The position numbers and the translations under genes are program-made. Under the pieces are notes generated by a model, which ran no database searches, had not been told where the DNA came from, and saw only the letters and a program-made list of their open reading frames with translations. 49,207 nt of DNA, taken from an uncultured Candidatus Saccharibacteria bacterium (lineage in GTDB: Bacteria > Patescibacteriota > Minisyncoccia > Phycocordibacterales > JACNGX01). Of this stretch, positions 28,445 to 47,054 are shown piece after piece. The stretch is from NCBI GenBank assembly GCA_964621395.1, contig CAZULS010000001.1, positions 311,106-360,312 of the forward strand, given 5' to 3'. Numbering within the stretch: position 1 is the first letter of the stretch; every line of letters starts with the position of its first letter.

Positions 28445-28515
28445 GCGGAATTAGTTAAGTGGTATAACATCAGCTTCCCAAGCTGAGATCGCGAGTTCGA
28501 TTCTCGCATTCCGCA
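28445..28515 (+). tRNA. tRNA-Gly(CCC)
   Basis: GCGGAAT acceptor, tcagc-ttCCCaa-gctga, GTTCGATTC; CCA not encoded. Confidence 0.95.
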
Positions 28516-28694
28516 CAGCCAAAGCGAACCGCCCTGAAGGGGCGGATTTCGCTTTGAGCTGTGCGGAATGAGCGAGCCAACTGCTTGGCTCGCGTCGAGA
28601 ATCGAATGCTCTCCAATATTGCGAGCCGCGCCTGCCTGCCGGCAGGTCCAGCGATACTTGAGAGAATACGAGCCCTTGGGCGAAGTATTATGAT

Positions 28695-28891
28695 TAGAAC
28701 CAGTCTCACTGAAAACGTTGAAAAATAAGGGAAACATATTCAAGAGCTGCGCTTGGCAGTTCTCACGCCCAAACAGCGGCTGCGCCTTGTCGCTCAACCG
28801 CACCGCACGAGAGTGCGGCGCGGTCTCCGCGACATCGGCTCGCTCGCAGTTTGGGCGCGAGAACAAGCCATTTTCAGTGAGACTGGTTCTA
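28695..28891 (-). mobile_element. 197-bp MITE-like structured element, copy 4, inserted in a tRNA-tail module
   Basis: Same TIRs; removing it with one TA restores gatTAGTAatcgtGGGAC. Confidence 0.92.
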
Positions 28892-29012
28892 GTAATCGTG
28901 GGACGATTCTCTCCTTTTTATCAGCCAAAGCGAACCGCCCTGAAGGGGCGGATTTCGCTTTGAGCTGTGCGGAATAGCAAGTGCATTTATGCACTTGCGT
29001 GCGGAATCGAAC

Positions 29013-29113
29013 CGAGCACCACTTTCACTGATTGAGTTATTTGAAGTATTGAATATAGACAGCTCCGTGTAATTTGTAATGGGATTTTAGTGTATAAGTG
29101 AAAGTGGTGCTCG
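29013..29113. mobile_element. ~100-bp element with 17-bp perfect terminal inverted repeats
   Basis: cgagcaccactttcact ... agtgaaagtggtgctcg; relatives at 8894-8990 and 33852-33945. Confidence 0.7.
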
Positions 29114-29233
29114 ACGTCCAGGAGTACTTTGCGGATTGCGAATACCTGGAGCAATACGCTTAGTAACTCCGGGACGATTCTCGCACTAATGAGCGAGCCG
29201 TACTATAGGCTCGTGTCGAGAATTATTTTCGCC

Positions 29234-29267: not shown

Positions 29268-29489
29268 ATGAACAATTTTGACTTTCAGTCTGTTGTGTGG
29301 AAAGAGGGGGAATATTATGTTTCTCAGTGTTTGGATGTGGACGTGTCAAGCTTTGGGAAGACAAAAAAGGAGGCGCTTGATAATCTTGCCGACGCACTTG
29401 ATTTGTATTTTGAAGATATGCCTGTGCCCAAGAAGGCAGAACGTGTGTCTCACCCGACAATTGTCCCCGTAACTCTCAAGCATGCCTAG
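29268..29489 (+). CDS. hicB: HicB family antitoxin
   Basis: VVWKEGEYYVSQC...VSSFGKTKKEALDNLADALDLYFE. Confidence 0.88.
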   Translation: MNNFDFQSVVWKEGEYYVSQCLDVDVSSFGKTKKEALDNLADALDLYFEDMPVPKKAERVSHPTIVPVTLKHA

Positions 29490-29887
29490 ACCGTATCCCG
29501 TACGGATTATTATCAAAACCCTTGAGCATAAGGGTTTTGTCTTTGTCTCTCAAACAGGCAGTCATGCGAAATATCGTAAGGAAGGTACCCCGACACGCAC
29601 GGTGATTGTCCCAATTCATACCAAAGATATATGAGAGCCTGTTCATAATCTCAACGGAATTGAATGAAAGAGATATATCCTTGCCGGCTTAACGCACCAT
29701 ATACCGGCTGCAAATCCCTCAAAGCGTCTCGAAGTACGAGAGTACTCCGTCGACACTTTTCACGATTTTCGCTCGGTATATGGTGCATTACGCACGACAT
29801 GAGATTATAAGCAGGCTCTGATATGGAACATTTCGCTCTATTCTCCGTCAGTCGGGTTTGAAAAAAGAAGATTTTTCGAAAAAATAA
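29482..29887 (+). pseudogene. hicA: HicA toxin gene split by a MITE
   Basis: 5' part ...KGFVFVSQTGSHAKY...VIVPIHTKDI (29482-29631); 3' part YGTFRSILRQSGLKKEDFSKK* (29822-29887). Confidence 0.9.
29635..29818 (-). mobile_element. 184-bp MITE with GAGCCTG TIRs and TGA target duplication
   Basis: gagcctgttcataatctca ... tgagattataagcaggctc, with TGA on both sides. Confidence 0.9.
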
Positions 29888-33774: not shown

Positions 33775-33851
33775 GCCGAGGTAGCTCAGTTGGCTAGAGC
33801 ACTGGTCTGAAGAACCAGGTGTCGGCGGTTCGAGCCCGCCCCTCGGCACCA
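33775..33851 (+). tRNA. tRNA-Phe(GAA)
   Basis: GCCGAGG acceptor, ctggt-ctGAAga-accag, GGTTCGAGCCC, encoded CCA. Confidence 0.96.
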
Positions 33852-34349
33852 AGCACCACTTTTATAAATAGACACATGGTATACCCATGTGTCTATTTGC
33901 TTAGCCCTCTCTGTGGTATTTTTCGTAATCAATAAAAGTGGTGCTTGGTGCCGAGGGAATGCCACACCTCACACGTGATTTTTTTATATAGAGCCAGGTT
34001 TCTTTAATGCCTATTATATTTGTTTATGAACATAAAAGCGTATGAGGTGTGGCATGTGCGGGCTCGAACGGCGCAGCTATATCGGAGCAGTTTACTGCGA
34101 CGATTGCGAGCCGCGTCTGATACCACTCTTTCATTTTTCTCTCAAAACAATTGTTAGAGATAATGTAGGTAAAGAGAAGTGCGATATACGCTATAGATAC
34201 GAGAGTGGTATCAGACGAGCCCGCCCACAAAATATTTCGAGCAAAATGTAACATGTGCGGGCTTGAGACTAGCCTATAGACAAATTATCTTTCTTGATGT
34301 AGTCTACGGAGAGGTTAGTTACGGAAAAATAATTTAAACATGATATAAA

Positions 34350-46621: not shown

Positions 46622-46687
46622 ATGTTAGGAGGTTAGTAAATTAGGAAATTAAGCATTAAAAAAGACACATATAGTATAGCATGTCTC

Positions 46688-46896
46688 TTCAATTCCTGTG
46701 TCGCCGCACAGATACAACACATGAATGTCCCGGAGTTACTAAGCGTATTGCTTCGCTAAAGCTCGCAATCCGCTAAGTACTCCTGGACGCGGCTCGCAGC
46801 CCCGCAAGCGGGGACCCACTGCTCCGCCGTTCAATTCATGTGTCGCCTCACAAATACATAATAAGCACGGAGGCATGCTCCGTACTTATGTATTTG
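46688..46896 (-). other. tRNA-Val 3' tail element (anti-tRNA, GTCCA...GGGAC module, second anti-tRNA)
   Basis: Minus strand: hairpin, ggcgacacatgaattgaac, gcgagccgcgtccaggagtacttagcggattgc...gcaatacgcttagtaactccgggac, attcatgtg, ggcgacacaggaattgaa. Confidence 0.8.
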
Positions 46897-46970
46897 TGGG
46901 CGACACAGGAATTGAACCTGTGACCTTCACAATGTCAATGTGACGCTCTAACCATCTGAGCTAGCCGCCC
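46897..46970 (-). tRNA. tRNA-Val(GAC)
   Basis: GGGCGGC acceptor, tcaca-ttGACat-tgtga, GGTTCAATTCC. Confidence 0.95.
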
Positions 46971-47054
46971 GTGGGATTATCTTACACTTTTGCAGCACTG
47001 ATTTCAATGGGAATGTAGTGAAAAAATTTAACAGATGATATAATTCAACGTATT

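Follow-up and report, generated by a model that had tools for sequence, protein, structure and literature searches.

What is the long non-coding tail behind the tRNA-Val(GAC) gene of a patescibacterial genome, and how did parts of it come to read as copies, in both orientations, of the 3' end of that same tRNA? The locus was studied in a stretch of 49,207 nt (the window; contig CAZULS010000001.1, positions 311,106 to 360,312 of the forward strand) from an uncultured Candidatus Saccharibacteria bacterium. Patescibacteria hold a huge uncultured share of bacterial diversity and have genomes smaller than 1 Mb. A preliminary description had proposed a constant core between target-specific arms with junctions at the T-loop, and this arrangement holds both at tRNA-Val and family-wide.

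Organisation of the tail behind tRNA-Val

The tRNA-Val(GAC) gene lies on the minus strand at 46897-46970 (Rfam tRNA, 68.6 bits; ARAGORN sets its end one base further, at 46896), with the T-loop at 46910-46916, minus strand. The sequence elements previously listed behind it are all present, on the minus strand, as are all features given in this section. A promoter-like site 5' of the gene (TTGAAA, 17-nt spacer, TAAGAT; 46979-47007) was returned by a consensus scan with 9 of 12 positions and is a consensus match only. The tRNA segment from T-loop to discriminator (S1, 46897-46916) is followed directly by a terminator-like hairpin (hpT, 46849-46896) with a 12-bp stem and a T-rich tail. hpT forms the apex of a palindrome S1-hpT-A1, in which A1 (46829-46848) is an antisense arm, aggcgacacatgaattgaac, ending in ...GAAC. 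By sequence comparison, A1 complements the discriminator, the 3' acceptor strand, the 3' T-stem strand and the T-loop of tRNA-Val, with a single substitution that reads C>A in the sense direction.

Between A1 and the sense arm S2 lies a core of 106 nt, GGCGG...GGGAC, which forms a three-way junction; its two helices were delimited by consensus structure and covariation. P2 (46788-46828) comprises ggcgg...gcgagccgcg, with CGGC, a variable GC-rich hairpin and then GCGAGCCGCG; its gcgagccgcg recurs in Gly unit 1 of the window, as had been pointed out. P3 (46727-46787) is a long hairpin, tccaggagtacttagcggattgc / gcaatacgcttagtaactccggga(c), with GTCC/GGAC at its base, a conserved ACTTAG / CTTAGTAACT internal loop (ACUUAG/CUUAGUAACU in RNA), a bulged A and a GA-rich tip. 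S2 (attcatgtgt, 46717-46726) starts at nucleotide 58 of the T-loop, continues through the 3' strand of the T stem and pairs with A1 in helix P1. The sequence bears out the earlier observation that S2 shares the C>A change of A1: both carry A where tRNA-Val has C, and the inner arms therefore still pair.

Downstream of S2, a spacer identified from the sequence (tgtatctgtgc, 46706-46716) leads to A2 (46688-46705), a second antisense copy, ggcgacacaggaattgaa, whose presence had likewise been reported and which matches the reverse complement of the tRNA-Val 3' segment at 18 of 18 positions. Taken together, spacer and A2 repeat the right hpT arm and A1 at 26 of 29 positions (BLAST row valtail 43-71 against 357821-357793), and thus resemble the remnant of a second palindrome minus its centre. 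A hairpin followed by a TTTTTT run (46658-46687), read from the sequence and found to fold, though not flagged by the terminator scan, is the likely end of a transcription unit made up of tRNA-Val and its tail. The next gene starts at 46622, minus strand, and the insert holds no ORF.

Related units in the window

Gly unit 2 (29063-29189, plus strand; R1 match, 74.2 bits) stands behind tRNA-Gly(CCC) (28445-28516) and combines the P3 of the Val unit with Gly-specific arms. A 23-mer from the 5' arm of P3 occurs twice in the window, in the Val tail and, with one mismatch, at 29117-29139 behind tRNA-Gly, and in none of 100 shuffles. The two modules had been said to differ only at one flank base and in the apical loop; the apical loop does differ, but the other difference is not at the flank, being instead an internal-loop base of the 5' arm (A versus T). 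A weaker family unit with visible arms follows tRNA-Phe (33775-33851) at 34053-34230, plus strand (R1 match, 47.6 bits).

Association with tRNA genes and specificity of the arms

Searching the genome for the 3' anchor motif yielded 25 matches, 15 of them with at most one mismatch. All 15 lie behind a tRNA or tmRNA gene (14 on the same strand, 156-651 nt downstream of a tRNA gene, and one behind the tmRNA gene), and the core was not found elsewhere in this genome. Among 76 distinct full-length units from about 30 genomes, 68 have a tRNA or tmRNA gene on the same strand within 900 nt upstream, 52 of these within 100 nt. Compared with 102 distinct tRNA sequences, the sense arm found its unique best match in the adjacent tRNA in 36 of the 68 units, where about one would be expected by chance. 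Both results are as the preliminary description had anticipated.

Over 52 units, 451 of 467 P1 positions of S2 agree with the tRNA. Where S2 deviates, A1 sides with S2 in five cases and with the tRNA in five; with only 16 informative positions, this even split does not establish a general sharing of variants between the inner arms, such as is seen at Val. The antisense arm ends at the T-loop complement and the sense arm begins at T-loop nucleotide 57 or 58. GAAC, the plain complement of the T-loop, or GAAG (one unit) precedes the core in all eight aligned units, with P2 and P3 at the core ends. As a direct repeat, the 3' segment of the tRNA measures 10 nt with one change at Val (S1/S2) and 39 nt at Leu(TAG); at the Val locus of a congener the repeat takes in the entire 85-nt S-hairpin-A block. 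This arm logic is common to at least three core types that are unrelated to one another.

An antisense echo of the tRNA was found at 25 of the 44 tRNA genes in this 744-kb genome, against 1 of 44 in an upstream-flank control, and at 1 of 34 tRNAs in a complete genome from this order that has no model matches. The echo accompanies the elements and not tRNA genes in general.

Folding and covariation

In the consensus fold 91% of cells are paired, compared with 69% in shuffles, and changes on both sides are seen in 32 of 33 pairs; none of 500 shuffles reached the observed values. In helices 3 and 4 the paired fraction is 96-97%, and 19 of 20 pairs show both-sided changes. On the tRNA-sense strand G·T outnumbers A·C by 132:32, and with pairs taken from the opposite strand the ratio is still 26:11; in a control MITE, the asymmetry flips with the strand that is folded. 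The fold thus covaries strongly, and G·U is tolerated on the tRNA-sense strand. The hairpin hp1 (11 copies) has a conserved loop on covarying stems. For tRNA-Val with its tail, the minimum-free-energy fold (-150 kcal/mol, z = -9.5) pairs the tRNA 3' half with A1 and lacks the cloverleaf; an acceptor/T-stem-like helix is present in the predicted tail structure. A Xer/dif-like reading of P3, weighed by eye, was rejected, as its stem covaries freely and conservation is confined to loop and bulge bases.

Distribution and mobility of the core

A covariance model of the core matches 32 of 61 genomes of the order, with 0 to 22 copies per genome, and also records titled Saccharibacteria, Parcubacteria and Woesebacteria; it found no match in the other phyla sampled. 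The distribution is patchy and phylum-wide. Viral contigs gave six exact motif matches, none of which was confirmed by the model.

Coding DNA of congeners is 70-80% identical, and their intergenic DNA does not align. The Val core is nonetheless identical at 105 of 106 positions to a core between Ser-type arms of a congener, where the adjacent gene is about 80% identical. As a near-identical core sits between Val arms here and Ser-type arms there, the core is mobile and the arms are of local origin. The Val core also matches that of the Asn tail of the same genome (98/107), and the Gly(GCC) core of a congener matches the Pro(GGG) core of this genome (104/107). Among aligned units, P2 and P3 subtypes assort independently.

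The set of tailed tRNAs differs between congeners: in one, the orthologous Val(GAC) gene is inverted and has no tail, and in another the Val(GAC) locus carries a full S-hairpin-A / core / S-hairpin-A array. Units are often truncated or interrupted by MITEs, and tandem arrays with a period of 176 nt occur. Short-read assemblies break in the tails at tRNA loci, and contigs from four DNA runs stop at these repeats. A scripted search for empty targets, in which an antisense arm is joined to a sense arm via a GAAC loop, returned only ordinary terminators, many with CGAAG loops.

Search for enzymes and known families

In this 97%-complete genome no reverse transcriptase, TnpB, serine recombinase or IS110 was found. 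The IS91 Y2 domain had no match in it either, in a search whose control likewise matched nowhere. The sole PF00589 match is a Xer-type tyrosine recombinase, scoring as XerD/XerC/XerA type; it reaches 133 bits with the integron integrase model TIGR02249, against a cut-off of 265. An integron cassette with attC was rejected on this score and on the junctions, which read GAAC / GGGAC-GA and not RYYYAAC / GTTRRRY. A MITE was rejected as well: terminal inverted repeats are not conserved, and all P1 columns vary by tRNA while the core is conserved.

The genome does encode a RAYT-like protein of 265 aa with HUH and Y motifs, whose gene is flanked by REP-like hairpins of its own (ccaaag...ctttgg) that are unrelated to the cassette. 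In 61 genomes, element and protein occur together in 24, the element alone in eight, the protein alone in 15 and neither in 14. Genomes with 11 and nine element copies gave no RAYT-like match, an element-free genome has 13 protein matches, and six loci with the RAYT-like gene gave no match to the core model.

In searches against Rfam 15, among them one of 20 tail loci at permissive E-values, only tRNA and tmRNA were significant, the other rows being sub-threshold hairpin look-alikes. Full-text literature searches turned up no account of the cassette family, which is apparently undescribed.

Proposed origin of the tail

We tentatively favour a reading that we would not yet call probable: a mobile cassette without a transposase, which would spread through recombination or template switching and be transcribed together with its tRNA as a tRNA-mimicking trailer, by a mechanism that we infer. 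The Val tail would be a composite of a multiplied tRNA 3' segment and one 106-nt non-coding cassette. At the DNA level, the segment from T-loop to discriminator and part of the hairpin would have been multiplied in direct-inverted-direct order, S1-hairpin-A1 ... S2-(hairpin remnant)-A2. The cassette (P2, P3) is the part that moves and is exchanged, and the arms are copied locally from the target; a dedicated transposase is presumably not involved. The arms may stem from template switching of the fold-back type at the terminator hairpin, which would amount to a miniature inverted triplication like that of ODIRA. For ODIRA, template switching at short inverted repeats is reported to lead to inverted triplications, and forks to stall at tRNA genes (PMC11790251). 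Cassettes would then be spread or swapped between sites and genomes by recombination or template switching at T-loop-derived junctions, short sequences common to all tRNAs.

Transcription of the tRNA probably continues through the whole tail. In the resulting transcript, pairing of A1 with S2 would close the cassette by a helix equivalent to the stacked acceptor and T stems of the tRNA, and in many copies hp1 would occupy the place of the D and anticodon arms. Given this helix and hp1, the trailer would resemble a pre-tRNA and might be excised by RNase P and RNase Z. Against the mobile-cassette reading, the conserved unpaired nucleotides and the hp1 loop look more like functional RNA than junk, and where S2 and the tRNA differ A1 follows the one as often as the other. 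No copying event of the proposed type was caught in the sequences examined. A three-step template switch should be rare, yet 25 tRNAs are tailed, which argues for an enzyme or strong selection; the presence of a RAYT-like HUH protein, which co-occurs weakly with the element, also counts against an enzyme-free view.

A bolder form of the proposal strikes us as unlikely. The cassettes would be a new bacterial RNA class, both gene and parasite, which copies the 3' end of the adjacent tRNA as its own processing signals and which RNase P and RNase Z would release as a stable RNA of about 130-180 nt with tRNA ends. Such an RNA would carry the acceptor helix and discriminator of its tRNA, so that CCA-tailing is conceivable. 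The cognate synthetase might charge it, or it might act as a sink for enzymes or toxins directed at tRNA, and some Patescibacteria would possess a 'shadow tRNA' for over half of their tRNA genes.

Other explanations place the function in the RNA. Each cassette with its arms could be a non-coding RNA that is under selection and processed, and that imitates the acceptor/T-arm of its own tRNA, its spread being secondary; it might act on tRNA-handling proteins, drawing off processing, modification or toxin enzymes in the manner of a decoy or sponge, and CCA-tailing and aminoacylation are even conceivable. The tRNA-like order of parts (anti-acceptor, hp1, anti-T-stem, core, T-stem 3' strand, acceptor 3' strand, discriminator) speaks for this, as do the agreement of S2 with the tRNA (451/467), the strong covariation with conserved loops and bulges, the tolerance of G·U on the sense strand only, and the one arm logic around at least three unrelated core types. 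We nevertheless find such a companion RNA unlikely. Presence is very patchy (0 to 22 copies within one order, and the echo at 1 of 34 tRNAs in a complete genome), congeners differ in which tRNAs are tailed, and units are often truncated or MITE-interrupted, which is the behaviour of a dispensable, selfish element. Alternatively, the arms could act in cis, pairing with the 3' half of their own tRNA in the primary transcript to control folding, 3' processing or termination. The minimum-free-energy fold that joins the tRNA 3' half to A1 (-150 kcal/mol, z = -9.5) is of this kind, A2 is a perfect 18-mer complement, and most of the differences between A and the tRNA in a congener are of a kind that G·U pairing accommodates. 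However, the cloverleaf would form co-transcriptionally before A1 is synthesised, and A1 has a second partner in S2, with which it closes the conserved core. Antisense action on the tRNA also sits poorly with one arm being sense and the two arms pairing mutually; 19 of the 44 tRNAs in this genome have no echo, nor do 33 of the 34 in the relative, and the conserved core and its mobility are left unexplained. A cis regulator is thus very unlikely.

The remaining alternatives supply an enzyme. A non-autonomous single-stranded DNA transposon of HUH type (IS200/IS605 PATE, REPIN or IS91-like), moved by a Y1 or RAYT-like enzyme in trans, would insert 3' of GAAC, which is complementary to GTTC in the T-loop, and have GGAC as its end, with P2 and P3 as subterminal hairpins. 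The sharp core boundaries (GAAC | GGCGG ... GGGAC |) with one hairpin at each core end fit this, the strand asymmetry is also compatible with a single-stranded DNA intermediate, and the 265-aa protein with HUH and Y motifs is encoded in the genome. We still rate it as decidedly unlikely: the RAYT-like gene has unrelated REP-like hairpins of its own and no model match in six gene loci, the 11- and 9-copy genomes yielded no match to the protein, and the genome with 13 protein matches is free of elements. No empty target hairpin turned up in the sequences searched, the IS91 Y2 domain was without a match (as was its control search), and the model leaves unexplained how each new tRNA comes by fitting arms. 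Small integrative elements targeting the T-loop could instead have left the tRNA 3'-end direct repeat as an attL/attR pair. The repeats do start in the T-loop and reach or pass the tRNA end (39 nt at Leu(TAG), 85 nt at the congener's Val), and tRNA and tmRNA genes are classic integrase targets (PMC4383910, PMC1762012). Against such a scar stand an insert of only about 170 nt that is non-coding, a single tyrosine recombinase that is Xer-type, and the fact that integrase models predict neither an inverted copy nor arms matching 25 tRNAs around one core; we regard it as highly improbable.

Comparison with known systems

We know of no transposon, integrative element or RNA family that colonises tRNA gene ends by copying its target. 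If the mobile-cassette reading is right, structured cassettes colonise tRNA gene ends in this way throughout the Patescibacteria, and would represent a new enzyme-free mode of DNA spread, or a pointer to an undiscovered enzyme, as well as a new kind of tRNA mimic. They would explain why tRNA loci are gene-order breakpoints in these genomes, and provide an annotation model that clears hundreds of unexplained 'intergenic' bases per genome.

REP/REPIN sequences with RAYT and the PATEs of IS200/IS605 are short, hairpin-rich, non-coding, multi-copy and intergenic, with strand-specific hairpins. The cassette resembles them in all these respects, and in the presence of a RAYT-like gene in the genome. 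It differs in that its outer arms are copied from the adjacent tRNA and not conserved, in its link to tRNA and tmRNA genes, and in that the RAYT-like gene has different REP hairpins and does not track the cassette.

Other tRNA mimics are the tRNA-like domain of tmRNA, viral tRNA-like structures and mascRNA. A bacterial Y RNA, YrlA, is also reported as a tRNA-mimicking non-coding RNA (PMC4201824). As in these, an acceptor/T-stem-like helix closes a larger RNA in the cassette and could recruit tRNA-processing enzymes. In contrast to them, the cassette belongs to no Rfam family, copies the specific adjacent tRNA and not a generic one, has a three-way junction in place of the T-loop, and is present in many copies per genome, each at a tRNA gene.

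The Islander catalogue covers genomic islands that integrate into tRNA and tmRNA genes via tyrosine integrases (PMC4383910), and mycobacteriophage Ms6 is reported to have its attB in the T-loop of a tRNA-Ala gene (PMC1762012). Such islands and phages share with the cassette the tRNA and tmRNA targets, the T-loop junction, the direct repeat of the 3' end and an intact tRNA. The cassette, however, has no integrase (the single tyrosine recombinase of the genome is Xer-type), is about 106-170 nt long and non-coding, adds an inverted copy of the target, and presents the same core with arms for many tRNAs. ODIRA shares the direct-inverted-direct copies and short-hairpin junctions (S1-hpT-A1-core-S2 at Val, the full array in the congener), and fork stalling at tRNA genes is cited as a trigger for it; it is known from amplifications of kilobases to megabases in yeast and human, whereas here the segment is about 20-40 nt, many tRNAs are affected, and a specific cassette sits at one junction.

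Architecture of the tail behind tRNA-Val

The tail of tRNA-Val(GAC) (46970-46897, minus strand) was read from the sequence, and all parts listed in the preliminary description, including a second antisense copy, were present on the minus strand. Directly behind the tRNA lies a first hairpin of 48 nt (46896-46849), followed by the first antisense arm aggcgacacatgaattgaac (46848-46829), which with 1 change is antisense to tRNA-Val from the T-loop through the 3' strands of the T and acceptor stems to the discriminator. The core consists of a GC-rich hairpin with gcgagccgcg at its end (46828-46788) and the long hairpin quoted in that description (46787-46727), and is followed by the sense arm attcatgtgt (46726-46717), which shares the C>A change of the first antisense arm, as had been noted. 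After an 11-nt spacer (46716-46706), the second antisense copy ggcgacacaggaattgaa (46705-46688; exact over 18 nt) and a hairpin with a T-run (46687-46658) close the tail; the next gene begins at 46622. The long hairpin had been described as differing from that of Gly unit 2, the second tail behind tRNA-Gly(CCC), only in the apical loop and at one flank base; the loop difference was recovered, and the single-base difference was found in an internal loop instead of the flank. One further copy of its 5' arm is present in the window, at 29117-29139 behind tRNA-Gly(CCC), with 1 mismatch (0/100 shuffles). As the spacer and second antisense copy repeat the right arm of the first hairpin and the first antisense arm at 26/29 positions, the tail can be read as two palindromes (sense segment, hairpin, antisense segment) around the core, the second of which reads as one that has probably lost its centre.

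Fold and strand asymmetry

Eight uninterrupted tail units, aligned over 144 columns, fold into a three-way junction, in which the arms pair with each other as P1 (9 bp in the consensus fold), P2 is a variable hairpin closed by CGGC/GCCG, and P3 is a long hairpin that starts from a GTCC/GGAC base, contains a bulged A and a conserved internal loop (ACTTAG facing CTTAGTAACT), and ends in a GA-rich tip. The covariance model R1 was built from this alignment. Covariation was counted in 54 distinct copies from about 30 genomes: 91.4% of cells were paired, versus 68.7% in shuffles, changes on both sides occurred in 32/33 pairs, and 0/500 shuffles and no slid register came near the observed pairing and covariation. 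tRNA-Val was also folded together with its full tail, as proposed in the preliminary description, and was far more stable than shuffled sequence (z = -9.5).

Mismatches in the tail units were lopsided, with G·T to A·C at 99:27. As derivation of the structure from one strand could create such an asymmetry artificially, the count was repeated with RNAalifold on both strands, yielding 132:32 for sense-derived pairs and still 26:11 for opposite-strand pairs, whereas in a control MITE the excess tracked the folded strand (52:24 vs 9:79). The sense-strand excess thus survives both derivations while the control flips; what is maintained is therefore a fold of the tRNA-sense strand, in RNA or in single-stranded DNA.

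Tails across the source genome

The source genome (744 kb, 47% GC, 97% complete) has 44 tRNA genes, with an antisense copy downstream in 25 (at least 10 exact bases of the last 26 of the tRNA, within 400 nt) and a sense copy in 15; the upstream flanks, as control, contained 1 antisense and 1 sense copy. The 3' anchor of the Val-type core, TTAGTNAYTNNGGGAC, has 25 matches at up to 2 substitutions. All 15 with at most one mismatch lie, in keeping with the proposed location, downstream and on the same strand of a tRNA gene (14, at 156-651 nt) or the tmRNA gene (1). The ten with two substitutions were treated as chance: for nine, the nearest tRNA gene is >380 nt away or on the opposite strand, and the tenth is 236 nt behind tRNA-Thr(TGT), where no tail was seen. 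Antisense arms always end with the complement of the T-loop (...GAAC), and sense arms start at T-loop nucleotide 57 or 58 and end at the discriminator or past it, so that the T-loop junctions noted behind tRNA-Val extend to all tails of the genome. The same kind of arms flank at least two other, unrelated core types, one behind Pro(TGG), Ser(GCT) and Gln(TTG) and the other behind Ser(TGA), Ser(GGA) and Val(TAC). A small hairpin, hp1 (11 copies, conserved loop CAACTGCTTG, covarying stems), is located within the antisense arm exactly at the border of its anti-acceptor and anti-T-stem parts; together with hp1, the succession of antisense arm, core and sense arm has the topology of a tRNA, the place of the T-loop being taken by the core and that of the D and anticodon arms by hp1.

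Other repeats are inserted in tails, such as a palindromic 200-bp MITE in Gly unit 1 (28694-28892), with 21-bp terminal inverted repeats tagaaccagtctcactgaaaa and at least 18 long copies across the genome. The tmRNA gene, recognized by an Rfam match at its 3' end and without an ARAGORN call, is followed by two tail units (contig C1, 224700-225500, minus strand), the second with a further MITE (gagcctgttcagaatctca...) within P3, the end of which also has a copy at window position 29637. Directly behind the tRNA-Gly tail lies what we take, from reading by eye, to be a HicB-like and HicA-like toxin-antitoxin pair (29270-29640). A tRNA with anticodon CTA (contig C5, 5084-5314; ARAGORN label 'Pyl') resembles an amber suppressor and lies 83 nt upstream of a second, divergent tRNA-Val(GAC); both are tail-free, and their 18.6-kb contig may be a phage or other mobile element. 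Dozens of terminator-like hairpins with loop C-GAAG, GC-rich stems and A/T-run flanks (e.g. C1:66448, C1:84661, C2:95462) may constitute a lineage-specific terminator signature.

Distribution and arm specificity

R1 identifies 19 copies in the source genome and is positive in 32 of 61 genomes of the order (source genome counted; 0 to 22 copies each). In the loci examined, 68 of 76 distinct full-length matches have a same-strand tRNA or tmRNA gene upstream at a distance of no more than 900 nt, and in 52 of these the distance is at most 100 nt; the tmRNA case is one of the 8 exceptions. Compared with 102 distinct tRNA sequences, the sense arm has the neighbouring tRNA as unique best match in 36/68 units and among the top three in 45/68, which upholds the proposed target specificity of the arms. 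For the antisense arm, where the test is cruder and hp1 often breaks up the arm, the numbers are 17 and 27; 20 units are weak on both arms. In a complete genome of the order where R1 finds nothing, only 1/34 tRNAs examined has an antisense copy, which ties such copies to the element system rather than to tRNA genes in general. Scanning one genome per species for the exact motif yielded 62 loci: R1 confirmed 23 of the 24 with Patescibacteria lineages in the record titles (Saccharibacteria, Parcubacteria/Paceibacterota, Yonathbacteria, Campbellbacteria, Woesebacteria), 0 of the 38 from other phyla, and 0 of 6 motif matches in viral contigs. The element is thus spread patchily and phylum-wide.

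Exchange of cores between local arms

The Val core (106 nt, GAAC to GGGAC) is identical at 105/106 positions to the core of a Ser-type tail with arms gagagtgagggattcGAAC and GAATCCCTCC in a congeneric genome, as expected of the constant core and target-specific arms of the preliminary description; the conserved gene adjoining tRNA-Val is 80% identical between the two genomes. Within the source genome, 98/107 positions are shared with the core behind tRNA-Asn; four other cores share 79-86 positions with the Val core in alignments of 108-117 columns. Likewise, a congener's Gly(GCC) core matches the Pro(GGG) core of the source genome at 104/107 positions, with coding DNA at 70-77% identity. Core identity runs from GAAC to GGGAC, plus shared T-loop bases. 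The sense arm matches the local tRNA at 451/467 P1 positions in the 52 units that could be aligned (16 more could not). At positions where sense arm and tRNA disagree, the antisense arm follows the former in five cases (including Val) and the tRNA in five, pairs with both in five and with neither in one. Cores move, and arms stay local. P2 and P3 subtypes are combined differently among units, so units recombine with each other. A congener also has an orphan two-unit Ser-type tail with no upstream tRNA gene (locus L069, 1250-1660); the arms of its first unit match Ser(GGA/TGA) and the antisense arm of its second Ser(GCT), so blocks also move between tails of similar tRNAs.

In one congener, the orthologous tRNA-Val(GAC) adjoins the same conserved gene, inverted and tail-free (locus L051, 2527-2709); gene order breaks at the tRNA, and the window gene 5' of it (from 47046) has no counterpart. 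In another, tRNA, hairpin and antisense arm precede the core, whose P3 holds a MITE; behind it follow the sense arm, a second copy of that hairpin, another antisense arm and the terminator, so that a full 85-nt direct repeat surrounds the core, and 3 of 4 differences of the antisense arm from the tRNA are G·U-compatible. Elsewhere, tandem arrays with a 176-nt period lie behind tRNA-Pro, and Lys(UUU), tail-free in the source genome, is tailed in a congener. Within the evolutionary time span of a genus, tails are acquired, lost, duplicated and rearranged.

Possible origin and rival explanations

Our preferred, still tentative explanation combines copying by template switching, exchange of cores at the T-loop, co-transcription and a tRNA-like trailer. 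Direct-inverted-direct copies of the tRNA end with hairpin junctions would be expected products of fold-back template switching; as described in PMC11790251, ODIRA yields inverted triplications at short inverted repeats, and tRNA genes are sites of replication-fork stalling. All tRNAs have a single stretch in common, the T-loop, which makes the ...TCGAAC | core | (C)GA... junctions natural switch points, where copying may change over between donor unit and new tRNA, or units may swap cores. The tail would be transcribed with the tRNA, given the constant strand, a promoter-like site upstream and a T-run hairpin only after the last arm; the first hairpin behind tRNA-Val, however, is itself terminator-like. 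In RNA, pairing of the arms would give the core a closing helix that copies the acceptor and T stems of the tRNA, so that tRNA-processing enzymes may release it. The main weakness of this explanation is that neither a copying event nor an empty intermediate was seen in the sequence examined. That the element is instead a selected tRNA-mimic RNA, to which the strand-specific fold would be suited, is possible, with a distinctly smaller probability. A cis-antisense regulator of the tRNA is improbable.

An HUH-type single-strand transposon, which could act on single-stranded DNA of the tRNA-sense strand, is unlikely, if less so than the antisense regulator. The source genome encodes one weakly RAYT-like HUH/Y1 protein of 265 aa (contig C4, 21540-22334; locus L057, 2041-2838, plus strand) with motifs HFHIL and YIHLNP, and its gene is bracketed on both sides by several small hairpins of its own, (t)accaaag-N5-ctttgg(ta), so that this 744-kb genome seems to contain a classic pairing of RAYT and REP. 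Relatives of the protein are present in 39/61 genomes of the order, with a maximum of 13 in one genome; protein and tail element are both found in 24, the element only in 8, among them genomes that have 11 and 9 copies, the protein only in 15 and neither in 14, and 6 loci with the HUH gene contain no R1 match. Because of these separate hairpins, the lack of nearby R1 matches and the poor co-occurrence, the protein is probably not the enzyme of the element. Searches of the source genome for reverse transcriptase, TnpB, serine recombinase and the IS110 domain were negative; the IS91 Y2 search had no match, nor had its control query. The sole tyrosine recombinase is Xer-type, and scars of an integrase are the least probable explanation, with hardly any weight.

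Comparison with known systems

No description of the tail elements was found in the main texts covered by full-text searches, and the element falls short of every family considered in a defining test. It looks like tRNA mimics (YrlA, tmRNA), yet nothing in Rfam resembles it. Repeats with conserved terminal repeats differ in having such ends, which the tail element lacks. With REP/PATE repeats it shares hairpins and multiple copies, but no Y1 enzyme tracks it. As in tRNA-targeting islands, though without an integrase, the junction lies at the T-loop and the 3' end of the tRNA is restored.
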